Below are positions 6,898-64,000 of a stretch of DNA of 64,000 nucleotides, in pieces (position 1 is the first letter of the stretch; every line of letters begins with the position of its first letter). The stretch spans positions 6,305-70,304 of the forward strand of contig OMOE01000167.1 of NCBI GenBank assembly GCA_900290365.1, in the 5' to 3' direction. The DNA is from Syntrophobacter sp. SbD1. GTDB taxonomy: Bacteria; Desulfobacterota; Syntrophobacteria; Syntrophobacterales; Syntrophobacteraceae. The position numbers were made by a program, and so were the translations under genes. The notes under the pieces are model-generated. The model was not told the DNA's origin. It worked only from the letters and a program-made list of their open reading frames with translations, and made no database searches.

Positions 6898-9566
6898 CAT
6901 CGTCGCTCGATTGTTTCAAAAATTGCGCGAGCGGCGGCTGACTCGTGCGGCAAAATTCCTTGACGACCTCAAGGTCCGGTATCACACTTTCCGGATTCTC
7001 CTTGCCAATAATGAGTACTCGCTGGATCTGATGAGGTCGCTTGACCTGTCACTGAGGTCCGGGAGTTCCGAAATGCCGGAGATAGCCGAAGAGCTTCTAA
7101 GCGTCACCTACGAGCTTGTCGACGGTCTGAACAGGCTGAGCGGGGACCGTCACCAAAGACTTTATGAAACGCATTACAGCCTTGCGGGTGCTATCCGCAA
7201 CGAACTGGACGCCATCATGGCGGTCCAGTCCCATGCGCCGGCTTTTGTTTTCCTGGATCATCCGGCAGCCGATCTGCGGGAAGAGGTCGGAGGCAAGGCT
7301 GCCGGCCTGGCCCAGTTGCGCAAGGCCGGCTTTCCCGTTCCTGACGGTTTTGCCGTTACGTCGAACTCCTGCGAGGGAATACTATCGGCCAACGGTCTCG
7401 ATCTTTTTATTCGGCAGAGGGCGCAAAGACTGGAGGCCGGGTACAACCGAGGCACGGACTTCGAGGCTGACGCAGAGGAGATTCGCCTCCGCATTCTCGA
7501 CGCGGTTTTTCCGCAAGACTTCGAACAGGAGCTTCGGCGCGCTTACGAACGGCTCACCGGTTCGGGGGAAACGGCCATATCCGTGCGCAGCAGCGCTTCG
7601 GTCGAAGACCGGATTGAACACTCCTTTGCCGGTCAGTTCAAGAGCATACTTAACGTGATTTCATTCGATGGATTGAAGGACGCGTTAAGGGAAGTGATTG
7701 CAAGCAACTACAGCCCCGGGGCGATTTCCTACCGCCTTCACGCCGGACTGTCCCTGGCCAGGCACGACATGGCCGTTTTATGTCAGCGGATGATCCGGGC
7801 AGAGTCGGCAGGGATACTGTTCACTATAGATCCGGCAGACCCGGAAAACGGGCGGATGCTTATCAGCGCCGTTCCCGGGCTGGGAATAACGGCCGTGAGC
7901 GGGAGCGCTCCGGCGGATCTCTACCGGCCCTCGAGGGAACCAACAGACGCAGGCCCGATGGCGGATTGGGCGCAAGTTGCCAAAAAGACCCACCGCGCTG
8001 ATCCCGGGTTTAATGGAGGCATCGAGGAGCGGGAGCTTCCCGAAAATGAACAGGTCCTCCCCGTGCTTTCCGAGGACCGGGTCCACTCCCTCGTTAGCAT
8101 CGGCCGCCGGATCGAAAGCCTGGTCGGAAAACCGCAGGATATCGAATGGGCATTTTCGCAGGAAGGCGAGCTTGTGATCCTGCAGTCAAGGGATATCCGG
8201 CTTGCCCTCAAAAGCAGGCAGGCAGCGGAGGCTGCGCGGGGAGAAGTCCTTCTTAGAGGAGGGGTATGCGCCTCGCCGGGCCGGTGCGTGGGCAAGGTCA
8301 AAGTAGTTCATTCGACCCGTGATTTTGAGGACTGGCGTAAAGATCCTTCACGCGAGCCGGGTATCCTGGTGCTTCCACAGAGTATGTCGGATGCCGCAGG
8401 CTTCGTCCCGGAATTCGAAGGCGTGGTTGTGGATTTGGGCAACCCTGCCGATCACCTGGCCGTAACGGCAATTCGAAGGCGTGGTTGTGGATTTGGGCAA
8501 CCCTGCCGATCACCTGGCCGTAACGGCTCGGGAGTACTCCCGTCCGATGATGACCGGGGCCGGTAAGGCGACCCAAACGCTTCGGGACGGCCAGTGGGTT
8601 ATCCTGGACGCGGACATGGCCATGGTCTTCAAGGCCCCCGAGGAGGCCTGGTCGGCCGCCCAACGGGTTGGCAACGCTAATATGGAAGGCGGTTCGCAAA
8701 CCCGCAGGGCCGGGCGCAATGTCGCCTCACGCCCAGAGGCAGCCCGGCTCAGACAGTTGATCGAGCCTTTGAATCTGACCGACGCATACGGGCCAACGTT
8801 TTCCATACAGGAGTGCCGCTCTCTGCATGATCTGATCCGCTATAGCCATGAAATGGCTGTCCTGGCAATGTTCCAGACCGGAGACGACATCCTGGAGTCG
8901 GCGGAGGTGCTGGTGCGGCGACTCGAGGGCGCCGTACCGCTGCATTTCCTGATTATCGATCTGGGCGGCGGTATCGCTTCTGAAAGTAATAAGTTCAGGG
9001 TCCGGCTTGAAGATATCCTGTCGCTCCCCATGCTGGCGCTCTGGAAGGGGATACTGACGCCGGGGCTCAGATGGAACCTGCCGCCCCCCGCAGCCATGGT
9101 TTCCGGGCTCATGTCCCGATCCATGTTCGACTCGGGCAGCGCCAGGCCCATCGGCCAGCAGAACTACGCCTTGATTACACGGGATTATCTGAATCTGAAC
9201 GCGCGCGTTGACTATCATTTCGCCATGGTTGACGCGGTTTGCGGATCAAATCCGAGAGAGAACCATATCCGTTTCAGGTTCAAGGGGGGCGGGACGACCG
9301 CTGTGCAGCGCGAGCGGCGTGCGCTGTTCATAACCGAAGTGCTCGAAGCGAACAATTTTTTTGTAGACCAGCGGGGCGACCTGGTGACTGCGTCCATCCT
9401 GGAAACACAGCAGTCTGAAACCGAGGACCGGCTTGTCATGCTGGGAAGGCTGCTCGGATTTAGCAGGCTGCTCGATGCGACCATGCGCGACGACACCGTC
9501 CACAAAAAAGTGGCGCGTGCGTTTATTGATGGCGATTATGCGCTGACAACAGTGGGTCAGGAGTGA
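6890..9566 (+). pseudogene. PpsA/PPDK-like paralogue 3, split into two ORFs (to 8566, and 8481-9566) by a 58-bp tandem duplication
   Basis: VRSSASVEDRIEHSFAGQFKSILNV, PQDIEWAFSQEGELVILQSRD, GNPADHLAVTAREYSRPMMTG, and C-domain DYLNLNARVDYHFAMVDAVCG..NHIRFRFKGG. A GTG at 6890 overlaps the stop of paralogue 2 (GTGTCTAG), with GAGGAG 7 nt upstream. Deleting one 58-bp copy joins the frames (frame arithmetic checked) into one ~872-codon ORF. Confidence 0.8.
8412..8527. repeat. Perfect 58-bp tandem duplication (8412-8469 = 8470-8527)
   Basis: Read directly: aattcgaaggcgtggttgtggatttgggcaaccctgccgatcacctggccgtaacggc occurs twice with no mismatch and exactly 2.0 copies. The flanking bases differ. Confidence 0.97.
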
Positions 9567-10222
9567 TAGAAACGCATCCTGGGCAGTTCTACGGCAGTGA
9601 GCATGTTTCCGTAGGCCGCCCCCGTGTCGATGCCGATCTTGCCTGGCGCAACGAAAGGCGTCTCGAAAGGGGTGTGGCCAAAGACGGTTACCTCGCTTGA
9701 AGTGCTTTCGTCTTGTAAAAATATGTCCCGCACGCTCAGGAGACGATCCAGCGGGCAGTGCTCGAGGTCCTCTCCGGGTATAGTCCCCGCGTGGACAAAA
9801 AGATAGCCGCCCAGCCTGAAGTGTGGCTGGAGCCTTTCGAGAAAACGGATATGTTCGACCGGCATAAAGGATAAATCCCCCAGGGATCGAACCGGGGCGT
9901 TCGAGTAGCTGTTCAGGGTATCCTCCACACCGATGGATCGAAGCGTTCTCAGATAATCGAGATTGCCCGTGCGGGAATACTCCAGCAAAGCATGTTCGTG
10001 ATTTCCCATCAGGAAAACCGTGTTTCGAACCTTTCCCCCTGTCTTCAGAAGATAATCGATCACCTCACGCGATCCGGTTCCCCTGTTAATGTAGTCCCCG
10101 AGAAAAACCAGGTAATCCTTCTCCGGATCGATGGGCAACCGCTCGATCAGAGAGGTGAGCTTTCGATTGCAGCCGTGGATGTCGCCAACCGCGAATATCT
10201 TCTGTTCCGCAAAAAGGTTCAT
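9557..10222 (-). CDS. Calcineurin-like metallophosphoesterase (PrpA/ApaH-type Ser/Thr phosphatase or Ap4A hydrolase family)
   Basis: Motifs GDIHGC, GDYINRG, GNHE and VHAG in canonical order. The 3' end overlaps the stop of paralogue 3 by 10 nt (convergent). Confidence 0.85.
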   Translation of the reverse strand: MNLFAEQKIFAVGDIHGCNRKLTSLIERLPIDPEKDYLVFLGDYINRGTGSREVIDYLLKTGGKVRNTVFLMGNHEHALLEYSRTGNLDYLRTLRSIGVEDTLNSYSNAPVRSLGDLSFMPVEHIRFLERLQPHFRLGGYLFVHAGTIPGEDLEHCPLDRLLSVRDIFLQDESTSSEVTVFGHTPFETPFVAPGKIGIDTGAAYGNMLTAVELPRMRFYHS

Positions 10223-10230
10223 CGGGACCT

Positions 10231-10300
10231 TCGAGTTTTGAGTTTCGAGTTTTGAGTTTTTAGTTAGTCAACTCAAAACTGAAAACTGTTGAAAACTGTT
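10231..10300. repeat. Intergenic low-complexity block: 14-bp x2 (10231-10258) and 10-bp x2 (10281-10300) arranged as an imperfect palindrome
   Basis: tcgagttttgagtt x2, then aactcaaaactgaaaactgtt gaaaactgtt on the other arm. Lies directly upstream of the phosphatase start. Confidence 0.8.
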
Positions 10301-10475
10301 CATATGGTGTATTCGCCCCGGAAACATACAAGGTTCACTGAGGGGCGCATCGAAATATCAGTATATCCCAGACTACAAGCGTTCCCTACTCGTTTCTTTG
10401 TCCCTTCACCCCGCTTCGCTCGTACCCTTCGCGTTCTTCGTGACCAAGCTCTTCTTGCCCCGACCGACAAGACCA

Positions 10476-11051
10476 TCAGATTCTCATCGTCACATCGCGG
10501 CTCCATGTCTGACGGTACTGGGCAGCGGCCTGCTGCGCTACGGTGGCGTCTTCGATCTTCCCCCCGGCTGCAAGCTCACCTGCAAGGACAAATGGAATGA
10601 TATCGCTCAATTCCACGATAAAGGGAGTAAGATCGGTCATGTGCCGTTGGGCCATCGAGGCGATTTGGGTTTCATCGAGGGCCAGCGCCGTCGTTTGCAG
10701 CATCCCGTAGCTGATGACCGCCATATTGAGTAAAGTGTAATCGTCCCTGAGATTTTTTGAAACCGGCTCATTTGATCTAAGTTTTCCGTAGATGTTCGCA
10801 AAAGATCCCACAACCGATGTTGCCGCCTTCTTCAGCCTGGCTTCAAAATTCCCATCGAGTGTTGACAGATTTCGTTCAAGTTCGGCTACATGCGTTGTTA
10901 ACGCCGCATCGATTCTTTGAAGGGCTCCCAGGGCATTGTTAAACTTCCTTAGTCGTTCATCGTGGACCTGGCGCTCGATGCGTTGAAGGGCAAGTTGTTC
11001 GACGCCCAGCATATCGGCCAGATTTTCCCGAAGTACTTCCGATCCCGTCAT
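10476..11051 (-). CDS. Hypothetical all-helical protein, possibly ferritin-like (DUF892/YciE-type)
   Basis: GGAGG RBS 6 nt before the ATG. The helical pattern resembles YciE-like proteins, but the match is weak and by eye only. Confidence 0.45.
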   Translation of the reverse strand: MTGSEVLRENLADMLGVEQLALQRIERQVHDERLRKFNNALGALQRIDAALTTHVAELERNLSTLDGNFEARLKKAATSVVGSFANIYGKLRSNEPVSKNLRDDYTLLNMAVISYGMLQTTALALDETQIASMAQRHMTDLTPFIVELSDIIPFVLAGELAAGGKIEDATVAQQAAAQYRQTWSRDVTMRI

Positions 11052-11507
11052 TGCAGACCTCCAATGGTTATTCTTCTATTTTGGCTAATTCATTCGAATT
11101 ACAGACATTTGTTTTGTAATTTAAGCAGCTTTGCGCAAAAGGAAAGCAGAGGGGCAGATCACCGTATCCCACTCGAATGAGAATTTCTCGCGCGAAGGCG
11201 CGATTGACAACCCGGCCGCAACCCATCGATTCGTTCGAGGGGCCACGGTCGATCTTGAGCCGCGAAGAGGGAGCCCAAATCAATATCCTTGTGCCCCCCT
11301 TCATTGGGTTTGAGAAACTCAATTTTTCTGTCGCTAAATCAGAACAGCTTAGAGTCGCCTTTGAGGAAATCGCTCCGCCCTTATTGAAGCCCGCAGCCCC
11401 CCTTCGTTTACAATAGCCTACATATAATTACCTTAAATTAAACGGACTTGGCTGTCTCTGCCGTCAATGGGACAGTGTAAACGTTAACCTCCAGGGAGGG
11501 TACTTCG

Positions 11508-12017
11508 ATGTACAGCAAAGTTAAAATCATGGGACACCCAGTTCATCCCATGCTGGTGAATTTTCCGATCGCCTTTTACGTCTCGACCCTGATCGCGTTC
11601 ATTATATACAGCATTTTCGGCGACCCATTTTGGTTCTGGGTAGGTCTTGCGGCAAACTTCGCCGGAGTTGCGATGGCGTTTGTGGCGGCCACTTTCGGGT
11701 TTATCGACTGGACGTTCGGCATTCCGTACGGGTCGGCTGCTAAGGATACCGGCGCAAAACATATGTTGCTCAATATTGTTTCGCTCCTGTTGTTCATAAC
11801 CTGTTTGATCCTAAATGCCGGCCAGTGGAATGCTATTCTACCGGTTGCCAGGGGGATCGTTATCTTACCTCTGTTTGGGGTAATTTTGACAATCGGCGCG
11901 GGCTATTTCGGGTGGACGCTGGTGCAGAACCATCACGTCGGGGTTGAGTTCTCGCCCGACGAAGAACGCTGCATAAGTGAATCGCGATCCGCTGGATTTA
12001 CCAGAGACACGGTGTAG
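11508..12017 (+). CDS. DUF2231 domain membrane protein
   Basis: N-terminal GHPVHPMLVNFPIAFY signature, four predicted TM helices, GGGAGGG RBS. Confidence 0.75.
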   Translation: MYSKVKIMGHPVHPMLVNFPIAFYVSTLIAFIIYSIFGDPFWFWVGLAANFAGVAMAFVAATFGFIDWTFGIPYGSAAKDTGAKHMLLNIVSLLLFITCLILNAGQWNAILPVARGIVILPLFGVILTIGAGYFGWTLVQNHHVGVEFSPDEERCISESRSAGFTRDTV

Positions 12018-12147
12018 GCTTGAGTGCACAATGTAATCTATTTATTTTCAACGACAGAGGCATTAATTTTGTCTGACGTTCCCATAACGAGGGGGACCTG
12101 TGGCGAAAGCATTTTCGGCAGTGGCAATTCAGAAACTGTAAAACCAA

Positions 12148-13803
12148 ATGAGCCTCTCTCTAGATGCCAGACATTTGAAACGTTACAGGGAACTTGCCGG
12201 ATTTCTGATCAAGTACGGGCGCTCAGATATATTTTTTCGGGCCGGGCTTGAAAAAGTGCTCGATGAACAGCCTGCTGCCGAAAGGGTCAGCCCCGGGGCG
12301 GAAGAGCTTCCCAAAGACCTGGAGAAGATGGGTCCCACATACGTAAAACTGGGGCAGTTCCTTTCCACCCGCTCCGATCTGCTGGAGCCCCAATATATTG
12401 AAGCCCTCTCTCGCCTTCAGGACAGAGCCGAATATTTTTCTTATGAGAAGGTCGAGTCAATTATTACTTCCGAGCTGGGGCTGCCCGTAGCCAGGCTGTT
12501 TTCCTTTTTCGACAAGACGCCTCTTGCCGCCGCTTCCCTGTCGCAGGTCCACCGGGCTATCCTTCTTGACGGGCGCTCCGTGGCCGTAAAGGTCCAAAGG
12601 CCCGGCATCCGCGATCAGATAGCCCTGGACCTCGATGTGCTCCTCGAGTTGGCCGGATTTCTGGACAGACATATCGACGTGGCTAAGAGGTTTATGCTCC
12701 AGGAGACCATCGAGGAATTCCGAAAAGCGCTTGTCCAGGAACTCGATTTCAAGGAGGAAGCTCAGAACCTGGTGATACTCTCGGAGAACCTTGAAGAATA
12801 CGAGAAAATTGTGGTGCCGTTGCCCGTCCATGCCTATACTACCTCGAAAGTGCTCACCATGGAACATATCCGAGGGCAAAAGATTACAAGCATACATCCC
12901 CTTGGCAGGCCTGAAATCAACGGGCACGAACTTGCCGATGAGCTGTTCAGTGCGTACCTCAAGCAAATCCTTATCGATGGGTTCTACCACGCCGATCCGC
13001 ACCCCGGAAATGTGTTCCTGACTGACGATGGGCGTCTGGCATTGATAGATTTGGGTATGGCCGCCCGCATCTCCGACGGTATGCAAAAAAAGCTTCTCAG
13101 GTTCACCCTGGCTATAAGCGAGGGCAAAACCGATGAGGCCGTCCAGTATGCGATTGAAATCGGCGAAAAGACCCCTGCTTTTGACGAGCAGGCCTTTGGC
13201 AAACAGGTGCAGGAATTCATAACGCGCTGGCAGAGGATTAGAATCGGGCAAATGGAGATCGGCCGGGTCATCCTGGAGGTGCTCAAAGTGGCGGGAACCA
13301 GCGGTTTTCGTTTCCCGGCCGAACTGGCGATGCTCGGAAAGTGCATGCTAAATCTCGACAATATCGGCCGAACTCTGGACCCGGCATTCGATCCGAACGC
13401 GGCTATCCGCAGGCATGCCGGAAAACTCTTAAGGCAAAGGCTTTTAAAGAGGCTGTCGAGCGCCACCCTTTATAAAATGGCCATGGAGTCGGAAGAACTG
13501 GCTGAAAATTTCCCTCAAAAGCTCAGAAAGATAATCGACATCTTCGCCGACAACGATTTCAGGGTCGGCGTCAATGCTATTGATGAAAAATACCTCATGA
13601 GGATGTTCCAAAAGATCGCCAACCGCATTGCGATCGGGATTATAATAGCGGCCATCATTATCGGGGCAGCAATACTAATGCGTGTGGAAACCCCCCGGTT
13701 CACGCTTTTCGGGTATCCAGGGCTGGCAATAATTTCTTTTCTCATTGCCGCCATAGGGGGACTTATATTCGCAATCGTAATGTTGATAAAAGACGAAAGG
13801 TAG
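12148..13803 (+). CDS. ABC1/UbiB (AarF) family atypical kinase with C-terminal TM helices
   Basis: GPTYVKLGQFLSTRSDLLEPQYIEALSRLQD, AAASLSQVHRA, VAVKVQRPG, HADPHPGNV and IDLGM. Confidence 0.85.
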   Translation: MSLSLDARHLKRYRELAGFLIKYGRSDIFFRAGLEKVLDEQPAAERVSPGAEELPKDLEKMGPTYVKLGQFLSTRSDLLEPQYIEALSRLQDRAEYFSYEKVESIITSELGLPVARLFSFFDKTPLAAASLSQVHRAILLDGRSVAVKVQRPGIRDQIALDLDVLLELAGFLDRHIDVAKRFMLQETIEEFRKALVQELDFKEEAQNLVILSENLEEYEKIVVPLPVHAYTTSKVLTMEHIRGQKITSIHPLGRPEINGHELADELFSAYLKQILIDGFYHADPHPGNVFLTDDGRLALIDLGMAARISDGMQKKLLRFTLAISEGKTDEAVQYAIEIGEKTPAFDEQAFGKQVQEFITRWQRIRIGQMEIGRVILEVLKVAGTSGFRFPAELAMLGKCMLNLDNIGRTLDPAFDPNAAIRRHAGKLLRQRLLKRLSSATLYKMAMESEELAENFPQKLRKIIDIFADNDFRVGVNAIDEKYLMRMFQKIANRIAIGIIIAAIIIGAAILMRVETPRFTLFGYPGLAIISFLIAAIGGLIFAIVMLIKDER

Positions 13804-14053: not shown

Positions 14054-14398
14054 ATGATTCACATGTCAGAGAAAGCCGAAACTGTTTTGCAGGATTATTT
14101 CAAGGAAAAGCAGATCACTCCGATCCGGATATTCCTCCAGACCGGTGGCTGAGCGGGTCCATCCCTTGCAATGGTTCTGGACGAACCAAAAGAAACTGAT
14201 GATGTTTATAAGCTGAACGGCTTTACCATGCTGGTCGATAAGGACCTTCATGAGAAGACCAAGGATATTACAGTCGATTATGTATCCTACGGGATGGGTT
14301 CCGGCTTCCGGGTGGCATCGGAAATCCCGATTGCAGGCGCCGGCGGAGGCGGGGGCCCCGTCGTGCAGTTGCTAGACAGGACCAAGGTCCGAGGGTAA
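14054..14398 (+). CDS. HesB/IscA-like protein with an in-frame UGA at 14150-14152 (candidate selenocysteine)
   Basis: GAAAGGAG RBS 8 nt before ATG 14054. Reads MIHMSEKAETVLQDYFKEKQITPIRIFLQTGG-TGA-AGPSLAMVLDEPKETDDVYKLNGFTMLVDKDL..., so the UGA sits where the family has the Cys of GGC.G. The downstream 75-aa ORF (14171-) is in the same frame and has no RBS of its own. Confidence 0.6.
14153..14185 (+). promoter_or_regulatory. Possible bacterial SECIS hairpin immediately 3' of the UGA
   Basis: GUCCA...UGGAC and CCAU...AUGG pairings are possible within gcgggtccatcccttgcaatggttctggacgaacc. Not folded computationally. Confidence 0.3.
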
Positions 14399-14410
14399 AG
14401 AACGAAGATC

Positions 14411-14446: not shown

Positions 14447-14470
14447 GACTTTACTCTTAACGTGTTCGAG

Positions 14471-15007: not shown

Positions 15008-15220
15008 CTTCCTCCTCCTGATTTAGCGAAAAATTTGATTATGAAATAATTTCTTCTGGATCAAATAAGATCAAATAGTTCAAATGGGAGGGAAAGTAAA
15101 ATTTTTGGATGAAAATTCCAATCAAAAAGTGGTAACTATGCCTCCAAACGGGATTAAGGACAAAGGTCCACAAAAAAATTGGTCACGAAGAACGCGAAGG
15201 GTACACGATCGACAACCCGT

Positions 15221-15344
15221 CCGCATTCCGCCGACCTGTTCGAGGGGCGAACCCTCACCTTGTTCGGGTTCCGCGTTAAACGCCGCATTCCGCCGACCTG
15301 TTCGAGGGGCGAACCCTCACCTTGTTCGGGTTCCGCGTTAAACG
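15221..15344. repeat. Perfect 62-bp intergenic tandem duplication (15221-15282 = 15283-15344), with a degenerate partial third unit near 15390-15420
   Basis: ccgcattccgccgacctgttcgaggggcgaaccctcaccttgttcgggttccgcgttaaacg occurs twice with no mismatch. Confidence 0.95.
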
Positions 15345-16284: not shown

Positions 16285-16288
16285 GAAG

Positions 16289-17114: not shown

Positions 17115-19521
17115 TCATTGCCGGTTCGAAGCTGATGCGATTGATCTTCCCGCGCGCAACTGCTTGCAGAAATCTTCCACCAGAGTTCGCTTCTGATAGC
17201 CGGGGTAAAGCTCGATTACCTTTTCGAAAGCCGCTATAGCTCCTTCTGTATCTCCCGCCTCGGATGAAAAGAATCCGAGCGCCAGCCATGCGTTCGAGTC
17301 TTCCGGGTCGCCTTTTAGCACTTTTCTTGCCGCTTCTACGGCGTGGTCCCCGTCACCTCTGGCATAATTATACCACCCCTTGAGCAGCCGGGCGTCACGA
17401 GAACCGGGAAAAATTTGCAGGGCAGCATCCAGTCGATTTTCCCCGAGTGCCTGGAAAACCTTCGGCAAATGTTTCTGTTGCACTAAAAATGCCACAACCA
17501 TGTCGAAATTGAATCTGGAAAAAGGATTTCGTACATATTTTTGGAAGGAGTTCCATTTTTCTTTTTGAGCGCTATTCTGGGCATCTTCCTTTTGGAGGTT
17601 TTCCATTTCTGTTTTCAGGTGCGGATCACCGGGGTCGTTTGCGTACTCCCGCTCAATTATCTCACGGGCATATTGCGCCTCCCCGTGTTTCTTGAATTCT
17701 TTGGCGACCCAGAGTCCAGGGGGCAGGTCTCCGGGGTCGAGTATGCCGTCATGGTTCGGGTCTAAGCCCTGCGGGCCGAACTCGGCAAGAATTGCCCTTG
17801 CGGTCATTTCAACCAGGCCCTTCTTGTAGAAGGAATTATCGGTCAGTTGCACGTACTTGAGCGCTTCGAGCGTCCATCTGTATGCTTCTTCGGGCTTCTT
17901 TGCGATAATGCATGCCTGGGCCAGGTTCAGGCAAAGATTCGGAAGGGGTCCTCCATCGAGCCCGTTGACCTTATCTTTTAAAAATTCCTCGTCGCGTTCG
18001 ATCGCTTCGTCAATTCTCCCCAGTTTTATAAGGGCTATGGTTATGGCGTTCTGGGCAAGAGCATCGGTCTCGCGTCCCTTTCTTCCGAGTTCAATTGATC
18101 TCTCGGCGTATTTTATGGCGTCCTCGTACCGGTCGACTGTGCAAAGCACATTGGCGAAGTCGGAATTTGCCCGCGGACTGTTGGGAGCTTTTGCTACCGC
18201 ATCGTAATGGATCGTGACCGGGTCTTCCCAAGCGCCGTTCCGGGAGAATGTCAGAAGGGTAAGGCACGCGGCGACAATGAGAAGGGATGAGCAGGCAGCC
18301 TTTGCGAATTCGGCTTCCGGGAGCCGGCGTGCGGCCTGCCGGAAAACAGTCACAAGAATGGCGGTTATTGAAAGATAAAAGCCTATCGAGGGCAGGTAGA
18401 GCCTGTGTTCGAAAACCAGTTCCAATGGAATGATCGTCGATTCGATTACGAGATTCAAAAAGAACCAGGCAATTCCGAATGTGATCACAGGAAATCGCCT
18501 TCGGAACCTGATCGCGAGGAAAATGAGGGCGCCGATCACAAGCAGAGAAGGAAGCGTAGTAAGAGGGCTTAAAAGCGAAGTGGAAATCTCGACTTCATGG
18601 TCCATAGACAGGCGGGCCGGGTTTGGCCAGAGAAGAAGCGACATGTACCATACGACTGCCCTTCCTTCGGTGAGCAGGCGCTCAATCAGATTGAAATCCC
18701 TCTTGGCGTAACCGCTGAGAAGTTCAGGCAATACGACCGCGAAGGCATAAAAGGAGGATGAAAGCAGTGCGGCAGCAGTAGCCGCGCGGACTTTCCAGCC
18801 GGTTTTCCGGCACAGGGCCCAGGCTTTTTTCAGCCAGGCGGAATCGAAAAACCAGATATCGGTTATGGCCAGCGCAACCGGCAGGACCGCCGAGTTTTCT
18901 TTCGAAAGAAAGCTACAGAGGGAGCTAAGCGCGCAAAGAAAGAAGAAAAAGATGGCGCTCCTTTTTTTGTCCCCCGAAAGAAGGCGCGCCTTTATAAAGC
19001 ACGCCACGCTCAGCGTAAAAAAAAGCGCCTGTATGGAAGCCATGCGCTGAACGAGGTATGTGACGGCGCTTGTCTGAAGTGGGCTCAAGGCCCATACGGC
19101 GGCGGCGCAGAGCGGCGGCGGCGCAGAGTGGAAGAAGGCCTGCAATTTCATGGATTGGCCCTTCTGCGCCTCTGTTCTTTCCGGCTGCAAGAACCTGCCT
19201 GAAGAACCAAAAGACTGCCACGAACGCCAGCAAGTGGATCAGCAGATTCACGGCATGAAAATAAATGCCTTTGCTGTGACCCAGAGAGTGATTGAGCGCC
19301 AGGGTGATTACGGGCAGAAATCGCGTCCAGCCGAATTTTGACTGAGAAAGCGAAAGAATGCTCGAAACCGAGACTGAATCCAGATAGAGGGCTTTGTCAT
19401 ATATGAATGATTGAAAATCATCGAGGAAAGGCGGCGAGGTGAAAGTGTTCGAGTAAGCGGAAATAATCATCAAAACGATGAAAAAGGCAAGAATGTGAGG
19501 CAGCGCTTTTTTCGCCCGCAT
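17115..19521 (-). pseudogene. Polytopic membrane protein with C-terminal TPR repeats (TMTC/PMT_2-like glycosyltransferase-type family), frameshifted by a 16-bp tandem duplication
   Basis: The N-terminal ORF (MRAKKALPHILAFF...FLDDFQSF...) and the 691-aa ORF are offset by one frame. Removing 19113-19128 gives ...AGLLPLCAAAVWALSPLQTSAVTYLVQRMASIQALFF..., continuous and family-like. Confidence 0.75.
19097..19128. repeat. Perfect 16-bp tandem duplication (cggcggcggcgcagag x2)
   Basis: Read directly: 19097-19112 = 19113-19128, exactly 2.0 copies. Confidence 0.97.
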
Positions 19522-56155: not shown

Positions 56156-57651
56156 TTCATTTGCCGGAATGTAAGACCCAGATCGTCGGCGGCCCTTCTC
56201 CTGATCCACTTGTTGCGCTCAAGCGCCGCCGAAACTTCCTTTCGTTCGATTTCGTCCAGGCGGGACCAGGCGGAAATCGACTCAAGGCCTTTCGGCCCGT
56301 AACCCGCCGCCCTGTTCGGGTCGAATATCGATGCAAGGTCACCCGGTTCGATCTCCTCGCCTTCAGCCATTACCACCAGGCGAATTACGGCATTTTTCAT
56401 CTCCGCCAAATTTCCCGGCCAGTCATATTCGCACAGTTTCTTTAATGCTTGCGGGCTCAATTGAGTCGTTCTGCCCTGTTCCCTGCATGCATCCTCGAGA
56501 AAATGCCCGATCAATAATGGTATGTCTTCTTTTCTGTCACGGATCGAAGGCACATGAATCGGCAGGGTGCCGAGCCTGCTCAGCAGGTCTTTTCTGAAGG
56601 ACCCAGCAGCCGCTGCATCGGAAAGACTGCCGCTCGATACGGCGATGAGCCTCACATCGCCCCCCTTGGGCTTAGTCGTTCCAAAACCGCCTGCTTGCAG
56701 CTTGTCAAGAAAGTCCAACAACTTCACCTGGTGGGACGCCGAGAGGTCGCCCACCTCATCGAGAAGCAATGAGCCGCCGGCCGCCTTGTCGAAGGCGCCT
56801 CGCGAGGAGCAGATCTCGTCCATGCCGCCGCTATGGAACCCGGTTCCACTTCCGAACAGCTCAGTTTCCAGCAGGTCCTCGGGAAGAGAGCAATGAACTT
56901 TTACAAAAGGAGAGGATGCCCTGCCGCTAAGTTCGTGAACGATCCGGGCGACCGAACTTTTTCCCGTGCCCGGTTCACCCCAGATCAGAACAGGCGCTTC
57001 GGTGGGCGCCACCTTCCTGATTTGGACCTCGAGCCTCCGGCCCGCCATGCTCTTGCCAAGGCATACCAGCCCGAGATGCTCTTCGGAAATCTTCGCCCTT
57101 AGAGCCATATTTTCTCTTACCAGAGTCTCCTCGCGCCTCCTTACCTGGGATTGCAGGCTCAATACCCGGGCAACAAATGAAGCCAGCATCGAAAGGAACT
57201 GCATGTCATCGGCCAGCGGCGCCTGATCTCCGAACAGATCGTCCATGATGATCGCTCCCATGACTTCATCGGAGAGGGTGACCGGGGCGCCGAGCAAGCG
57301 GACCTGTTCCTTTTGAATGGAATGAAGAGCCTTGCGGTCCAAAAAAAGAGGCCTCGGGTTATCGCGCAGAACAACGAAGGGCTGGGGAATGCGCAATACA
57401 AGGTCAAACCCGGTTTTGTAAAGGGTGCGGATCATCTGTTCCGTGTCACCGCGCGAATCTTGCCTGGTTGGGGTAAAGAAAAAACGCACCTCTTCCCTGT
57501 TGCTGACGATGATGGCGGCAGTCGCCCGGGGAACAGCCTGTGAAAGGACTCCCAGCACTCCCTCGATGGCCTGTTCGAGATAGAGCGCACGATCTATCAT
57601 CCTGTGCATCACAGAAAAGATATTTAATTTTAGTTCACATAGGTTGTCCAT
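56080..57651 (-). CDS. Sigma-54-dependent transcriptional activator (GAF + AAA+ + Fis-type HTH), no receiver domain
   Basis: Walker A GEPGTGKS, Walker B GGSLLLDEV, RKDLLSRL, and a C-terminal HTH AADDLGLTFRQMNYRVKKFGL. The GAFTGA loop is atypical (see findings). Confidence 0.88.
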   Translation of the reverse strand: MDNLCELKLNIFSVMHRMIDRALYLEQAIEGVLGVLSQAVPRATAAIIVSNREEVRFFFTPTRQDSRGDTEQMIRTLYKTGFDLVLRIPQPFVVLRDNPRPLFLDRKALHSIQKEQVRLLGAPVTLSDEVMGAIIMDDLFGDQAPLADDMQFLSMLASFVARVLSLQSQVRRREETLVRENMALRAKISEEHLGLVCLGKSMAGRRLEVQIRKVAPTEAPVLIWGEPGTGKSSVARIVHELSGRASSPFVKVHCSLPEDLLETELFGSGTGFHSGGMDEICSSRGAFDKAAGGSLLLDEVGDLSASHQVKLLDFLDKLQAGGFGTTKPKGGDVRLIAVSSGSLSDAAAAGSFRKDLLSRLGTLPIHVPSIRDRKEDIPLLIGHFLEDACREQGRTTQLSPQALKKLCEYDWPGNLAEMKNAVIRLVVMAEGEEIEPGDLASIFDPNRAAGYGPKGLESISAWSRLDEIERKEVSAALERNKWIRRRAADDLGLTFRQMNYRVKKFGLDRLIKENRPRTRHLSS

Positions 57652-57835
57652 GCTTGCCGCCTTCTCGTTCGTTTAAAAACTGGATATCCGGGCTGGCTCC
57701 CCCGAACGGGTCTTGCCGCATAGCTTCCAGTTCCGTGCCAAACCGGAATAAGCCCGTTTTTGATAGCGAAATCAGAAAATTCAGATGAATTCTGTGCACA
57801 AAACGGCACAATTATGTTCGTTTAACCCTATTGAA

Positions 57836-57851
57836 GGCACAGTATTGTGCC
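57836..57851. promoter_or_regulatory. Palindromic UAS (GGCACA-N4-TGTGCC), NtrC-type enhancer site candidate
   Basis: ggcacagtattgtgcc, with a second GCACA-containing site at ~57795-57812. Confidence 0.55.
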
Positions 57852-57928
57852 AATTATGATATGTGTTTTGAACCAACCCTGCCGTCAAAAACTTTCCGAA
57901 CCCCACTCTTGGCCGCGATGGAAGTATT

Positions 57929-57944
57929 TGGCAGATAAATTGCT
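57929..57944 (+). promoter_or_regulatory. Sigma-54 promoter of glnB-amt
   Basis: TGGCAGataaaTTGCT, with exact -24 GG / -12 GC spacing, 105 nt upstream of glnB. Confidence 0.8.
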
Positions 57945-58000
57945 CACTGATTAACCGCCACGCAGCACCAGAAATCTCCACATGTCCCACAACGGTTTAA

Positions 58001-58387
<387 letters not shown>

Positions 58388-58493
58388 GACGAATGAGGAT
58401 CCATGAGTGTGCCTGAAACCGCCGCCCCAAAACGGGAGGCTGGATTTTTTCCGGCTAAAGAACGTTTAATCGAAATAAGAGGAGAGATAAAAA

Positions 58494-60197
58494 ATGGCTG
58501 GATGGAAAAGAGCGCGGGTACTTCTGTTCGTTTCAACATTTATAGCCTTGATGTTAATGCTGCGCCCGGCCGTTGCAGAGGAAACTTCCCCCCAAGTTGG
58601 AGTTCAAGCTGCTGCGGCACAGCCTGCAGAGCCGCAACCCGACCCCGCTGGAATTGCGACGGGGACTAAGGCGGATGCCCTGGATGCGGCCGGTAATCCT
58701 TTTGTTGTTGCCGAGCCCACCGACACAAAGGATCCCGACTACGCGAAGAAGAAAAAGGAGTACGAAGAATACCAGGAGCAGGCAGCCAAAGAGCCCCTCG
58801 CGGTTAAGCTGGCCGACACCGTGGGGCATGGCCGGATTGCGACCAATTTCAACTGGACACTCGTCACAGGTTACCTGGTGCTCTTCATGCAAGCAGGCTT
58901 CGCCCTTCTCACCTGCGGTTTGGTGCGCAAGAAAAACGCCGCCCATCTAATGATGCTTAACTTCGCCGCATACGTCTTCGCCTTCCTGGCATACTACGCA
59001 TGCGGCTACGCCTTCCAGTTCGGCGCCGTCGCAGTGAATGCGGCTCCAACGAATCTCGGTGGGATCCCGACTCTAAATGAGTTCCTCATTGGAAGCGGCC
59101 AGTGGGGCTTCCTGGGCGGCAAAGGCTTTTTCTTGAGCGGCCCGGCCTACGACGCCGGGAGCAATTGTCTCACGCTGTTCGAAGTCGTGTTCATGGAGAC
59201 GGCCGGGTATATCATCGTAGGCGCCATCTGTGAGCGGATCACTTTCTGGGGATTCATCCTCTGTGAGATCTTCATGGGCGCCTTCCTCTACCCCATATTC
59301 GGTTGTTGGGTCTGGGGCGGCGGCTGGATGTCGCAGTTAGGCGCCACTATGGGCTTTGGCCACGGCTACGTGGATTTTGCCGGCTCGACCGTTGTCCATG
59401 GAGTGGGTGGCTTCGCCGCAATGGCGCTCGCCTATATTCTCGGCCCACGCATCGGCAAGTACGGTAAGGACGGCAAGCCTCGAGCCTTTCCCGCGCACAA
59501 CCTCGCCTTTGTCGTGACCGGCACCTTTATTCTCCTGTTTGGCTGGATGGGTTTTAACCCGGGCTCAACCCTCGGCGCGTCGGACCTGCGCATTTCGGTG
59601 ATAGCCGTTAACACCAATCTCGCCGCAGTCGCTGCTTCGGCGACGGCCTTGATTTTCTGGTACTGGCGTTTCGGCAAACCGGACATCACGATGGCGTGCA
59701 ATGGCATGCTCGCAGGTCTCGTTGCCATTACTGCGCCTTGTGCGTTTGTTAGCCCGAACTCCGCCGTTATGATCGGCATCCTTGCGGGCATCCTCGTTTG
59801 CCTCGGAGTTCTTTTTAATGAGCGGGTGATCAAAGTCGACGATCCCTGCGGGGCCATCTCCGTGCACGGATATTGCGGCTGGCTAGGGGCCGTTTGTGTC
59901 GGCATTTTTGCTGATGGCACCTATGGTTCAGGCTGGAACGGCGTCGGCGCAACGACCTACCTCGGCAAAGCCGGCCAGGGTGTGACTGGTCTTCTCCATG
60001 GGGACGTGACGCAGTTCCTGACCCAGCTTGGCGGGGCCACCTTCCTGGCGCTGTACGCTTTCGGGTTTACCTTCATCGTGTTTAAAATCGTGAACGCCGT
60101 CAAGTCGATGCGCGTCTCTGAAGAAGTGGAACGCGAAGGACTCGACGTTCCGGAATTTGGTTTGCATGCTTACCCCGAGGACTCCTTGGTCGCATAG
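58494..60197 (+). CDS. amtB: Ammonium transporter (Amt family) with a long N-terminal extension
   Basis: Signal peptide. FMQAGFALLTCG, DFAGSTVVHGVGG, GWMGFNPGS, VHGYCGWLG. Confidence 0.95.
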   Translation: MAGWKRARVLLFVSTFIALMLMLRPAVAEETSPQVGVQAAAAQPAEPQPDPAGIATGTKADALDAAGNPFVVAEPTDTKDPDYAKKKKEYEEYQEQAAKEPLAVKLADTVGHGRIATNFNWTLVTGYLVLFMQAGFALLTCGLVRKKNAAHLMMLNFAAYVFAFLAYYACGYAFQFGAVAVNAAPTNLGGIPTLNEFLIGSGQWGFLGGKGFFLSGPAYDAGSNCLTLFEVVFMETAGYIIVGAICERITFWGFILCEIFMGAFLYPIFGCWVWGGGWMSQLGATMGFGHGYVDFAGSTVVHGVGGFAAMALAYILGPRIGKYGKDGKPRAFPAHNLAFVVTGTFILLFGWMGFNPGSTLGASDLRISVIAVNTNLAAVAASATALIFWYWRFGKPDITMACNGMLAGLVAITAPCAFVSPNSAVMIGILAGILVCLGVLFNERVIKVDDPCGAISVHGYCGWLGAVCVGIFADGTYGSGWNGVGATTYLGKAGQGVTGLLHGDVTQFLTQLGGATFLALYAFGFTFIVFKIVNAVKSMRVSEEVEREGLDVPEFGLHAYPEDSLVA

Positions 60198-60369
60198 AAT
60201 ATAGGTGAGTGGGTGAATAGGTGAGTGGGAGTGTAAACCTCGCTCCGACTCACCCACTTCACCCATTCACTCATTTTTGAAATAAGTGCGTTTTGGTATG
60301 AACAAATTGGATATAAGAATGAGTTCCCTCACAAAAACGGCACAATTATGTTCATAGACCTCAATTGTA

Positions 60370-60385
60370 GGCACAGTTTTGTGCC
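60370..60385. promoter_or_regulatory. Palindromic UAS, paralogous to 57836-57851
   Basis: ggcacagttttgtgcc. Confidence 0.55.
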
Positions 60386-60462
60386 AAATATGTTACGAGT
60401 TTTGAACCTATCCCGCCGAAAAAACCTTTTCTAGACTCACTCTTGGCCGAAATGACAGCCTT

Positions 60463-60478
60463 TGGCAAACAAATTGCT
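60463..60478 (+). promoter_or_regulatory. Sigma-54 promoter of the APC permease gene
   Basis: TGGCAAacaaaTTGCT, with exact spacing, 120 nt upstream of ATG 60599. Confidence 0.8.
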
Positions 60479-60598
60479 CTTTGTGTTGACTGCATGCAAA
60501 GCTCCAGAAGTTTCCACATCTTGCAAGGCGGCAATTTTTCACGGCGAAGAAGTAAACGACTACTATTTTACTAATCAATCGAATGAGGAAGGTGACTT

Positions 60599-62122
60599 AT
60601 GGCACAGGGAGAAATGAAAAAGACACTGGGGCTGACCGGTGTCACGGTGAATGCAATGGCGTTGATTGCGCCGGGGGCATTTTTATGGTTGACCTACCAG
60701 GTGCAGGCCTCGCAGGTGGATTTGGCCGGCAACACTACTGCGATGGATATGTTTGCCGGACTTTTTGTCGCATTGATTCTGGCATTCCTGACCGCAGTTT
60801 CCTATTCCAAGCTCGCGGAACTCTATCCGGATGCCGGGACGGGCAGTTCATACTACTTTACCGAACAGGCCTTGCTGGGGGAGGACAAGCTGTCGCCTTT
60901 CGCCAGGTTGTCCAAGTTTGTGGTGGGCTGGTTCTCGCATCTTTACTACTGGGTATACCCGGGCGTAATGGTAGCAATGATGGCTACGCTCATAGTCTAT
61001 ATTTTCCAGCAGTTCGGTATCGATCTCTCCGCTTTCTGGCAGATTGTGGTCGCGGTATTATTCGCATTCATGGTCGGATACATAGCTTTTCGCGGGATCA
61101 CCGGGTCAACCGTATCCAGTGTGGTGATCAATGTTATCCAGATCATTGCTTTGCTGGTAGTAACGATTCTGGCGCTGGTTTACCGTTTTACCAACCCCGA
61201 GCATGTTGAGTTCGTTCACTCGACACTCTCCTCGATTGTAATGCCTCACAGTTTCTCAAACGTGATGTTCCAGGCTACTGTGGCAATATTGCTGCTGGTT
61301 GGTTTCGAATCGGCCACGGCCCTTACGGCAGAAGCCAAGTCGCACAAGCACGTAAGCCGAGGGGTCATGATCTCGCTGGTTATCCAGGGACTCTTAATGT
61401 ACCTTTTCGAATACTTCGGGGCCAATGCCTGGATTAACACGGCTTATACCGGGAAAGACGCCAAGGGCGCAGTGGTCACCGGCCTTGACGCCGCAGCCGC
61501 CTCCAGCGCTCCGCTTGGAGACATGGTGCAAAACCTTGGCAATGCTCTTCTGGGCAACATGGGCTTCGTCCTGATGATTACGGTCGCGATTACGGTGGCT
61601 ATCGCCGTAATAGGCACCACTTTGGCCTGTTATAACACCGGGGTGCGCGTTACCTACGCAATGTCGAAGGATAAGGAAATGCCGAGCTTCCTCGGGTTTT
61701 TGCATCCCAAACACGCGACGCCGCATGCAGGCATACTGGCGATGACCATTGCCTCGGCAGTGATCGGTGCGTTCGGGGTCCTTTCGGTCGTAAACCTGAC
61801 CGCCATAACCTTCTGGTCCAATATCGGCACCTTCGTTCTCTACGGGATGACAAATGTGATAGCGCTGGTGGCGTTTTTGCGGCATCCGCAGCGAAATGCG
61901 TTCACGCACATAGTGGTTCCCGTTCTCGGCACTTTTGCCAACATCGCCATGCTGGTCGCGGTGCTCTACCTGGGAATCCTTGGCGGCGGCGATACCCAGA
62001 CCGCTGCTATGTACTCGATCATAGCCACCGGGGTATGGCTTGTGATTGGCGTTGTTTACCTGTTTGTACAAAGCTCCCGTACCCGCAGGAAAATAATTGG
62101 AGTACCTGTTGAAACCCATTAA
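60599..62122 (+). CDS. APC-family amino acid/polyamine permease, apparently nitrogen-regulated
   Basis: 12 TM; NAMALIAPGAF and FESATALTAEAK motifs; GAGGAAGG RBS. Confidence 0.85.
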   Translation: MAQGEMKKTLGLTGVTVNAMALIAPGAFLWLTYQVQASQVDLAGNTTAMDMFAGLFVALILAFLTAVSYSKLAELYPDAGTGSSYYFTEQALLGEDKLSPFARLSKFVVGWFSHLYYWVYPGVMVAMMATLIVYIFQQFGIDLSAFWQIVVAVLFAFMVGYIAFRGITGSTVSSVVINVIQIIALLVVTILALVYRFTNPEHVEFVHSTLSSIVMPHSFSNVMFQATVAILLLVGFESATALTAEAKSHKHVSRGVMISLVIQGLLMYLFEYFGANAWINTAYTGKDAKGAVVTGLDAAAASSAPLGDMVQNLGNALLGNMGFVLMITVAITVAIAVIGTTLACYNTGVRVTYAMSKDKEMPSFLGFLHPKHATPHAGILAMTIASAVIGAFGVLSVVNLTAITFWSNIGTFVLYGMTNVIALVAFLRHPQRNAFTHIVVPVLGTFANIAMLVAVLYLGILGGGDTQTAAMYSIIATGVWLVIGVVYLFVQSSRTRRKIIGVPVETH

Positions 62123-62150
62123 AGTTACTATAGACTTAACCCGTTAAATT

Positions 62151-62185
62151 GGCAGAAGGGCGCATTTCGAGAGCGCCCTTCTGCC
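62151..62185 (+). terminator. Hairpin 3' of the permease gene (no clear U-tract)
   Basis: ggcagaagggcgc-atttcgaga-gcgcccttctgcc, 13-bp perfect stem. Confidence 0.4.
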
Positions 62186-62235
62186 CGTTGGAGGCCTCCT
62201 TGCGAGCCAGCACTGCTTCTAAGAGGGATTATGTA

Positions 62236-62985
62236 GTGGATGCCTTACAGGTGCACGGTCTTTCCGATAAGGGGAGCCGTCAAAACAACGAAGATTACTT
62301 CGGCTATTACATGCCTACCGGGGGGCTCGACCGCCTGGGAAGCCTGTTTGCGGTTTCGGACGGCGTGGGCGGAAGCGCTGCCGGGGAGGTCGCCAGCGCC
62401 GAGGCGGTCAACGTGTTGCTCCAGGAATATTATTTCGGCGATCATACGGACAAAGTCCCCGAGAGGCTAAAAAACGCATTCCGAAATACTTCCCTGCACA
62501 TTTACGATCTTTCGATCAGTCATAGTTCGACGCGCCACATGAAGTGCACCCTCTCCACTCTTTTGTTGAAACAAAACCGGTTCTTTATCACACATGTCGG
62601 TGACTCGAAAATCATGCTGCTGCGCGATAATGATATGATCCAACTGACCAAGGACCACAACCTGGTGGGAAAACTCATGCGCCTTGGACTGGTAACCGCT
62701 GAAGAGGCGCGTACACATCCCAACAAAAATGTGCTATTGAAAGCGGTTGGGGATGGCCCATTGCTGATGCCTGATTTTTATTCGGGGGTCATCCGGCCCG
62801 GGGACCTTTTTTGTATGATTACCGATGGGATACTGGAACATGCCACCCACGACGAGTTAAAATCATTTCTCATCGAGCAGGGTTCGTCCACAAATGAATT
62901 GGCCGAGCTGATAGCCGAACTCAACAGGCGCGGCGGCCAGGATAACATGACCATCATGACGGTTAGAGTTAACAGGATTTACTAA
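62236..62985 (+). CDS. PP2C-family Ser/Thr protein phosphatase
   Basis: SDKGSRQNNEDY, AVSDGVGG, HVGDSK, MITDGI, GGQDNMT. GTG 62236 with an AAGAGGGA RBS. Confidence 0.88.
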   Translation: MDALQVHGLSDKGSRQNNEDYFGYYMPTGGLDRLGSLFAVSDGVGGSAAGEVASAEAVNVLLQEYYFGDHTDKVPERLKNAFRNTSLHIYDLSISHSSTRHMKCTLSTLLLKQNRFFITHVGDSKIMLLRDNDMIQLTKDHNLVGKLMRLGLVTAEEARTHPNKNVLLKAVGDGPLLMPDFYSGVIRPGDLFCMITDGILEHATHDELKSFLIEQGSSTNELAELIAELNRRGGQDNMTIMTVRVNRIY

Positions 62986-63002
62986 AAGAGGCGGTGACAA
63001 AA

Positions 63003-63341
63003 ATGACTAAAATAGAATGCATCCTGCGGCCGGATAGGATTTCGGAAGTGAGCAAAATCCTTGGCAGCCTGGGGATCAAAGGGATGACCGTAACAGAGGT
63101 GATCGGCTGCGGATTGCAGAAAGGCCACATCCGGGATGACTGGAACACCGAGTTCAAGATCAATCTGCTGCCGAAAACCAAAATAGAGATGGTGGTCTCC
63201 GACAGCATGGTTGATGACGTAGTAAACGCCGTAATCAAAATTTCCCGCACTGGCGAAATCGGAGACGGCAAAATTTTCACCTATCCCCTTGGTAACGCCA
63301 TACGGATTCGCACGGGTGAAACCGGCGAGGATGCAATCTAG
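63003..63341 (+). CDS. P-II family signal protein paralogue with a non-canonical T-loop (Thr49, Phe51)
   Basis: MTKIECILRPDRISEV...GMTVTEVIGCGLQKGHIRDDWNTEFKINLLP...TGEIGDGKIFT...IRIRTGE. Confidence 0.88.
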   Translation: MTKIECILRPDRISEVSKILGSLGIKGMTVTEVIGCGLQKGHIRDDWNTEFKINLLPKTKIEMVVSDSMVDDVVNAVIKISRTGEIGDGKIFTYPLGNAIRIRTGETGEDAI

Positions 63342-64000
63342 GGTTTTCTCAATAAAAGCAGAAGAATCGCAATCAGAACGGCAGCCAACACTGCCCCTCC
63401 GTATATCAGCAGGTTATTCCGCTTGGTGGGGAGGACAGCGGCCATCGGCGGGTCGGGTTCATTCACCCATTTGAGGTCTGCCGGGTCGGGTTCATTCACC
63501 CATTTGAGGTCTGCATTTTCAGGAAAGCGCAAATCATTTGCCATCTGCTCCGCCGAGTCGTAGCGTTCATCCTTTCTTCTGCGCAACGCTCTGCGAATGG
63601 CCGCCCATATCCCTGGATGCAAACCTTTTACCCCCGTGAGCGGTTCAGGGTCTTTGGTCATGTGCAGGTACATGACCGTCAGCGGATTATCCCCGGTAAA
63701 CGGAGGAGATCCGCTTAAAAGGTTATACATGAGGCAGCCGACTGCATAGATATCGCTTTTTGCAGTGCCGCGTTCTCCTTTGATCTGTTCGGGGGCCATG
63801 TATTCGGGGGTCCCCATGAGACCCGAAAAACCGCGCCAGGTAACCCGGGGCGCCCCTTCCATGAGCGCGATGCCGAAATCGAGAATTTTCAAATGGCCAT
63901 CCGGGCCCAGCACAAGGTTTTCCGGTTTTATATCACGGTGATACACTCCCCTTTCATGGCAGTAGTGTAGCGCATCCAACAGGTTTGCCACTATCTTTAC
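63338..64000 (-). CDS. Hanks-type Ser/Thr protein kinase, C-terminal part with TM anchor; 5' end lies outside the window
   Basis: HRDIKPENL, ILDFGIA, GTPEYMAPEQ, and a C-terminal TM LLIYGGAVLAAVLIAILLLLL. The frame is open to nt 64000. Confidence 0.9.
   Translation of the reverse strand, partial: VKIVANLLDALHYCHERGVYHRDIKPENLVLGPDGHLKILDFGIALMEGAPRVTWRGFSGLMGTPEYMAPEQIKGERGTAKSDIYAVGCLMYNLLSGSPPFTGDNPLTVMYLHMTKDPEPLTGVKGLHPGIWAAIRRALRRRKDERYDSAEQMANDLRFPENADLKWVNEPDPADLKWVNEPDPPMAAVLPTKRNNLLIYGGAVLAAVLIAILLLLLRKP
63449..63514. repeat. Perfect 33-bp in-frame tandem duplication inside the kinase gene
   Basis: 63449-63481 = 63482-63514, giving ADLKWVNEPDP twice in the juxtamembrane linker. Confidence 0.95.

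Follow-up and report, generated by a model that had tools for sequence, protein, structure and literature searches.

Exact two-copy tandem duplications that recur within a few tens of kilobases could record an unusual mutational process, a switching mechanism or an error of assembly. This question was raised by a 64,000-nucleotide stretch of the draft genome of Syntrophobacter sp. SbD1 (the window), in which a first-pass annotation had noted six head-to-tail duplications of 10 to 62 bp and had offered a slippage or repair-deficient background, reversible duplication-based switching or assembly artefacts as possible causes.

Tandem repeats in the window

All six arrays were recovered at their positions by Tandem Repeats Finder (TRF), each with 100% matches and 2.0–2.1 copies (Table 1). 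An exact scan of the borders gave a junction microhomology of 0 nt at the 58-, 62-, 16- and 33-bp sites, in keeping with the earlier remark that the four longest repeats lacked extended homology at their junctions. The gene context had to be corrected for the three coding events, which affect a PpsA/PPDK-like gene (58 bp; Pfam domains PF01326 and PF00391), a gene for a TPR membrane protein downstream of pilA (16 bp) and a Ser/Thr kinase gene (33 bp). Near the 33-bp site, a 278-aa PP2C-like ORF was observed at 62149-62985, with a P-II gene adjoining.

Table 1. Exact tandem repeats and a sequence omission located in the window.
Feature	Position	Strand	Evidence	Context
58-bp unit x2	8412-8527	.	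TRF period 58	inside PpsA/PPDK-like gene
14-bp x2.1 repeat	10230-10259	.	TRF period 14	intergenic, within GAGTTTT heptamer tract
10-bp x2.1 repeat	10280-10300	.	TRF period 10	intergenic
8-nt omission	14355/14356	.	comparison with three independent assemblies	
62-bp unit x2	15221-15344	.	TRF period 62	sodC-lspA spacer
16-bp unit x2	19097-19128	.	TRF period 16	TPR membrane-protein gene
33-bp unit x2	63449-63514	.	TRF period 33	near 3' end of Ser/Thr kinase gene

The six repeats, first described as a single phenomenon, are read here as two kinds, with the 58-, 62-, 16- and 33-bp repeats as probable join artefacts. The 14-bp and 10-bp repeats are genuine intergenic low-complexity sequence outside this artefact class. 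They are embedded in heptamer tracts (GAGTTTT x4.7 and AACTGAA x2.7 by TRF), and both were found unaltered in a contig of JGI assembly 3300000567 (L016) and in Logan contig SRR6193119_189307 (L015). In the draft, the 10-bp and 14-bp size classes have frequencies of 10.9 and 18.2 per Mb, respectively; the control genomes have 10 and 25–37 per Mb, and no excess over those genomes was found for either class.

The long duplications in independent assemblies

The one-copy or two-copy state of the long repeats was read from assembled JGI and Logan metagenome contigs and from congeneric genomes. A single copy was found in the independent JGI and Logan assemblies of the same population at all five sites tested, the four in the window and a 31-bp duplication on contig C36, within rpoC. 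At every site the best contig had flanks of 100% identity; a few mismatches were present in other contigs for the 16-bp and rpoC sites. The two-copy state was not seen among more than 15 independent contigs; these come from several samples of apparently one site, and a sister clone without the duplications is conceivable in principle.

At the 58-bp site, Logan contig SRR6193119_189307 was 100% identical over 5.6 kb and carried one copy, as did the congeners. The PpsA/PPDK-like gene, split in the draft into ORFs at 6797-8566 and 8481-9566, runs uninterrupted over 885 aa in this contig. The 62-bp site was covered with one copy by JGI contigs Ga0311301_10324354 (L011/L014) and Ga0136449_101246935 (L012), which were 100% identical save for an 8-nt tract at 14355/14356. 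These 8 nt (CGGCTGTT) are present in L012, L013 and L014 and missing from the window; judged from these alignments, the position would be a join that lost bases, the opposite error to the duplications.

The 16-bp site was crossed by eight JGI assemblies (L080-L087) with exactly one 16-nt gap, and one copy was also found in Logan SRR5253617 (L088) and in the congeners. Logan contigs of run SRR6193119 end at or beside this site, one of them precisely at position 19112, where the first copy gives way to the second; that run alone was not decisive, the other assemblies were. At the 33-bp site, one copy with flanks of 100% identity was found in a JGI 3300000567 contig (L077) and a Logan SRR6193119 contig (L078), and the congeners likewise had one. 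The duplication here is in frame and adds 11 residues to the kinase. The frameshifts ascribed earlier to the 58-bp and 16-bp events thus exist in the draft sequence, but the gene inactivation concluded from them does not hold, the independent assemblies having one copy at both sites.

Genome-wide frequency

The draft was scanned in full and compared with 400 kb of each of two closed or near-closed congeneric genomes, G009 and G019 (800 kb in total). Since raw counts of repeats of at least 16 bp were inflated in the controls by CRISPR and heptamer arrays, the same filter was applied to all genomes, accepting only events that stood apart from other hits, had at most 3 extra bases and lacked internal periodicity. 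In the 4.67 Mb of the draft, 82 exact two-copy duplications of 16-62 bp pass this filter, or 17.6 per Mb, and in the controls 0 and 1 per 400 kb (P = 0.0009 and 0.007 at the rate of the draft). By chance, about 0.001 exact duplications of at least 16 bp would be expected per genome (~4.67e6 x 4^-16); duplications of this length cannot be chance. The comparison with other genomes proposed in the first-pass annotation bore out an excess, with 17.6 events per Mb in the draft and a single one in the 800 kb of the controls. The unusual density claimed for the window itself amounts to a mild excess, with four long events where the genome-wide rate predicts about 1.1.

Absence of selection and of microhomology above chance

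Genome-wide, no preference for unit lengths that are multiples of three and no bias in location was found. Modulo 3, the unit lengths were split 33/30/28 over all sites and 25/24/22 over the coding-like ones, and 86% of the duplication sites were coding-like, compared with 84% of random positions. Frameshifting events were located in rpoC, dnaE, glnS, ftsH, hemA, uvrA, aprA and lpd, and about 47 genes are frameshifted by duplications in all; a second genomic copy of rpoC, glnS, hemA or aprA was not found in the draft. The events have not been filtered by selection.

These observations bear on the proposal of a reversible switch, similar to phase variation, in surface and signalling genes. Two window events do frameshift genes that could be regarded in this way, the TPR membrane-protein gene beside pilA and the PpsA/PPDK-like gene, and the 33-bp event extends a kinase linker in frame. 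Across the genome, however, the events fall in housekeeping genes and at random positions with the background coding fraction, neither in-frame nor out-of-frame states are enriched, and no repeat tract that could mediate reversal is present, the microhomology at the four window sites being zero. As the two-copy state was also absent from every independent contig, such a switch is considered extremely unlikely, the least probable of the explanations weighed here.

In bacterial and yeast mutators, duplications made by slippage or flap processing usually have short direct repeats at their borders and are filtered by selection. Those in the draft resemble them in being head-to-tail and tens of bases long, but differ in their absence from independent assemblies, in the essential genes hit and in their borders, where junction microhomology of 0/1/2/3 nt was observed 51/18/12/5 times against 48/24/9/3 by chance; microhomology above chance was not found genome-wide. 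A mutator lineage with a slippage or repair defect, carrying real duplications too recent to have been removed by selection, would account for the perfect identity of the copies, the exact number of two per site and a density far above that of related genomes. The apparently broken uvrA and dnaE genes could even be taken as its cause. Yet these two breaks are themselves made by duplications, and the idea was dropped once they were seen as products of the artefact. About 47 frameshifted genes, among them single-copy rpoC and glnS, are moreover incompatible with a living cell, and all five tested sites have one copy between identical flanks elsewhere. A biological process would also have no reason to stop at the k of an assembler or to flank N gaps, as described below, and a mutator origin is therefore held to be very improbable.

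N gaps, size ceiling and the published assembly

The draft consists of 182 contigs with 4,665,561 bases and a G+C content of 52.4%. For the metagenome-assembled genome SbD1, Supplementary Table S1 of Hausmann et al. (2018) lists 182 scaffolds, 248 contigs, 4.66556 Mnt and 52.5% G+C; the 248 published contigs equal the 182 scaffolds plus 66 ten-N gaps, and the draft matches this published genome. The latter was assembled with CLC at a k-mer of 63, with scaffolding (Hausmann et al., 2018), from the five source libraries of BioProject PRJNA412436 (PMC6018796).

Of the 66 ten-N gaps, 39 lie between exact direct repeats with lengths of 11-63 bp, the end of the left flank being equal to the start of the right, and about eight more have near-exact ones. 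The same type of exact repeat flanks 14 of the 24 gaps of 1-9 N, so that 53 of the 184 N runs in the draft have this structure. The reading frame is kept across only 11 of 47 NN runs in a coding context, which indicates that these runs are placeholders at joins. Duplicates reach at most 62 bp without N, which is k-1 of the assembler and the unit length of the longest window event, and 63 bp beside N. The size ceiling equals the k of the assembler.

One outlier, a 95-bp event at C103:2121, is longer than k, and scaffold joining does not account for it. There is a slight chance that this event or a few shorter ones are real, as young duplications segregating in peat Syntrophobacter and caught by the assembler; if so, they would suggest that duplications can arise independently of homology in this lineage.

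Also considered was an artefact introduced before assembly, through chimeric library molecules or a minor variant in the population whose junction k-mers would occur in some reads. Joins without N outnumber those with 1-9 N (82 vs 24), which leaves room for a distinct route, and part of the input consisted of DNA-SIP heavy fractions (Hausmann et al., 2018). In contrast, both the size limit at k and the same arrangement at N gaps point to overlap between contig ends, and the Logan and JGI assemblies, which include runs from the same site, lack the junctions. Amplification is not mentioned in the main text of the source paper ('amplif' occurs 0 times; Hausmann et al., 2018), and this route is thought most unlikely.

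Origin of the duplications

Taken together, the exact two-copy duplications of 16-62 bp are, with high probability, artefacts of scaffold joining and not mutations. De Bruijn contigs that adjoin at a locus would share up to about k terminal bases. If such contigs were abutted and their common end neither detected nor merged, the shared stretch would be written out as two perfectly identical head-to-tail copies that lack homology at the junction. The same process would sometimes leave an N run between the copies (10 N, or 1-9 N), and contig ends falling short of each other would result in dropped bases. Because the unit lengths are spread over 16-62 bp and do not cluster at k-1, a variable trimming of contig ends prior to joining has to be assumed in addition. 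The particular assembler step behind the joins without N is one that we infer; no paper or manual text on this behaviour in CLC specifically was found. Of the three causes first suggested, the assembly artefact is thus supported, with short-read de Bruijn scaffold joining in place of long-read polishing.

Related errors have been described. In 'negative gaps', contigs that should overlap are set side by side with redundant bases on both sides, and PBJelly trimmed 1-43 such bases at Sanger-validated gaps (English et al., 2012, PMC3504050). The 53 repeat-flanked N runs have exactly this structure, whereas most events in the draft have no N at the join; the redundancy then resembles a clean biological tandem duplication and escapes gap-based quality checks. 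SOAPdenovo2 is likewise a de Bruijn scaffolder that mishandles contigs overlapping by less than k, putting gaps between them (PMC5368935), but it is another program, and the report concerns gaps within overlapping contigs and not concatenation with zero gap.

Consequences for the SbD1 genome

With the duplications being artefactual, the genes that appear broken in the draft are not broken in nature, and neither the frameshifts nor the 11-residue insertion are properties of the organism. The finding holds no new biology; its worth is as a quality warning on a public genome that serves as species representative in a reference taxonomy. This draft carries about 80 false duplications, at least 47 false frameshifts, 184 N runs, of which many are arbitrary placeholders, and at least one silent 8-nt omission. 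Similar errors are probable in the twelve other bins from this co-assembly (SbA1-7, SbB1-2, SbD2, SbF1 and SbV1). The problem can be flagged without reads by screening for exact two-copy repeats that are no longer than k and show mod-3 neutrality, and for corresponding repeats next to N gaps. For Syntrophobacter sp. SbD1, pseudogene counts, inferences of gene loss, 'split gene' annotations and scans for repeats or mutational signatures would be misled when made on the draft as it stands.

Exact duplications in the window and in the draft genome

All six exact two-copy arrays reported by the first-pass annotation were recovered in place with Tandem Repeats Finder, with 100% matches and 2.0–2.1 copies. 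The window corresponds to C148:6305-70304 of the draft genome (182 contigs, 4,665,561 bases, 52.4% G+C, 956 N). Coding and intergenic arrays are both present as first described, with somewhat different genes involved: PpsA/PPDK-like, TPR and Ser/Thr kinase genes and the sodC–lspA spacer. The third of three consecutive PpsA/PPDK-like genes was called intact in a Logan assembly (885 aa, PPDK_N and PEP-utilizers), so that in nature all three paralogues of the array are intact. Two genes, one encoding a PP2C phosphatase and the other a P-II (GlnB-like) protein, are convergent with the Ser/Thr kinase gene, and the stop of the P-II gene overlaps the stop region of the kinase gene.

Duplications and associated features (window coordinates unless a contig is named), with the independent assemblies that carry one copy
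Feature	Position	Context	One copy in
58-bp duplication	8412	splits PpsA/PPDK-like gene (PF01326 + PF00391)	Logan SRR6193119 contig that matches the window identically for 5.6 kb
14-bp repeat	10230		
10-bp repeat	10280		
62-bp duplication	15221	between sodC and lspA	JGI 3300032160, JGI 3300010379 contigs
16-bp duplication	19097	inside TPR protein gene	eight JGI assemblies, all aligning to the window with exactly one gap of 16 nt; Logan SRR5253617
33-bp duplication	63449	close to 3' end of Ser/Thr kinase gene	JGI 3300000567, Logan SRR6193119
31-bp rpoC duplication	C36	outside the window	five JGI assemblies (flanks 100% identical), two slightly divergent
95-bp duplication	C103:2121-2312		
PpsA/PPDK-like genes	1291-9566		
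PP2C and P-II genes	62149-63341		
8-nt omission	14355/14356	near 3' end of small plus-strand gene downstream of sodC	
24-mer	15181-15204	immediately upstream of 62-bp join	
24-mer, reverse complement	10422-10445	10.4-kb spacer	
Logan contig end	19112	boundary between the two 16-bp copies	

An exact scan of the draft (runs of s[i]=s[i+p] of at least p, p = 8 to 600) yielded 91 primitive exact duplications with p ≥ 16. After a filter applied uniformly to all genomes (at most three extra matching bases, no internal periodicity, isolation from other hits), 82 survived, or 17.6 per Mb, with units of 16–62 bp throughout and a single exception of 95 bp. Of two congeneric genomes sampled over 400 kb each, G009 (a single contig) had none and G019 (four contigs) had one, with 7.0 expected in each at the rate of the draft (P = 0.0009 and 0.007), and by our own arithmetic random sequence would hold ~0.001 per whole genome. 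The impression of an unusual density was thus right, and it applies genome-wide, not just to the window, where four were found versus ~1.1 expected at the draft's own rate. The 10–11 bp class (10.9 per Mb versus 10 in the controls) and the 12–15 bp class (18.2 versus 25–37) were not elevated. Exact two-copy repeats of 8–9 bp occurred at 74.6 per Mb, versus 42–47 in the two congeners, an excess which may represent many further short join duplications hidden under the 16-bp threshold.

Neutrality of the duplications

The period modulo 3 was 33/30/28 over all events. Upon in silico removal of one copy, 86% of the sites lay in long open frames, versus 84% for random positions; the coding-like sites were distributed 25/24/22, which means that about 47 genes are frameshifted. 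Junction microhomology of 0, 1, 2 and 3 nt was observed 51, 18, 12 and 5 times, compared to 48, 24, 9 and 3 calculated by us for chance match extension on either side of a homology-free duplication. Eight frameshifted genes were identified by NCBIfam: rpoC (TIGR02386), dnaE (DNA polymerase III alpha), glnS (TIGR00440), ftsH (TIGR01241), hemA (TIGR01035), uvrA (NF001503), aprA (TIGR02061) and lpd (TIGR01350). No second copy of rpoC, glnS, hemA or aprA was found by tblastn against the draft, and the sole other match of dnaE was a paralogue at 31% identity. Such a load of frameshifts is incompatible with a living cell, and selection has never acted on the duplications.

Comparison with independent assemblies

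JGI and Logan contigs, assembled independently from the same population, were found by exact-protein look-up of intact genes beside the sites. Flanks were 100% identical to the window in the best contig per site, with a few mismatches in some of the remaining contigs for the rpoC and 16-bp duplications. Every contig spanning one of the five sites contained one copy, as did the congeneric genomes at all four window sites (58, 62, 16 and 33 bp). The 14-bp and 10-bp repeats were unchanged in Logan and JGI contigs and are therefore real sequence. The six repeats had been regarded as one phenomenon, which holds for the four long ones and not for these two.

N gaps and other join errors

N runs number 184 in the draft: 94 are two-N runs, 66 are ten-N gaps and the other 24 have 1–9 N. 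The bases left of the gap were repeated exactly at its right in 39 of the 66 ten-N gaps, over 11–63 bp, and with one to three mismatches in about eight more; 14 of the 24 gaps of 1–9 N had an exact flanking repeat. Their lengths span the same range as those of the N-free duplications, and such an exact repeat flanking a gap is the signature of two contigs with overlapping, unmerged ends. Two-N runs (for example C6:1741, C8:48489 and C16:6734) were flanked by a repeat in only 2 of 94 cases. The frame is maintained across NN in just 11 of the 47 that lie in coding context, so these runs are placeholders marking joins of undefined length rather than ambiguous bases.

Two JGI assemblies and one Logan assembly, all independent, have eight nucleotides (CGGCTGTT) at 14355/14356 that are missing from the window. 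This is a join where bases were lost, not repeated, a silent error that repeat or N scans would miss. At the 16-bp site, one Logan contig stops exactly where the first copy meets the second, which suggests a natural graph break there. Repeated words like the 24-mer GGTCACGAAGAACGCGAAGGGTAC, found next to the 62-bp join and again in the 10.4-kb spacer, may be the cause of contig breaks at those two places.

A mutator lineage, with real recent duplications from slippage or a repair defect, is highly improbable, and a reversible duplication switch even more so. Both had been offered as explanations, and both are contradicted by the neutrality and essential-gene frameshifts, by the single copy in independent assemblies and by the N-flank evidence. 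The third proposal, assembly artefacts, is supported by the one copy elsewhere, the N-gap repeats and the ceiling at k.

Origin of the duplications

The published entry for MAG SbD1 (182 scaffolds, 248 contigs, 4.66556 Mnt, 52.5% G+C; Hausmann et al. 2018, Supplementary Table S1, PMC6018796) fits the draft, whose 182 contigs and 66 ten-N gaps account for the 248. The published co-assembly of all reads used CLC Genomics Workbench 5.5.1 (k-mer size of 63, a bubble size of 50 and scaffolds of at least 1000 nt; PMC6018796), and the duplications have a ceiling of 62–63 bp because k was 63. Library chimeras or a minor population variant are a very unlikely source, leaving both this ceiling and the N-flank structure unexplained.

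The 16–62 bp duplications are very probably scaffold-join artefacts. As joining mechanism we infer that de Bruijn contigs neighbouring in the graph would hold up to ~k bases in common at their ends and would have been linked through paired reads in a scaffolding or joining step. The shared end would be left unmerged and both copies written, sometimes with N between, more often with nothing; lengths under k presumably come from variable trimming of contig ends. The lone 95-bp event, far over the ceiling of the others, falls outside this contig-overlap model. Negative gaps in draft assemblies belong to the same general error class, there trimmed by 1–43 bases (PMC3504050), and overlapping contigs are likewise mishandled by another de Bruijn scaffolder (PMC5368935); a literature search found no description of unmerged-overlap behaviour for CLC specifically.

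The original observation is correct, yet the duplications are no feature of the organism. They are a quality warning for the reference MAG SbD1, and probably for its sibling bins too.
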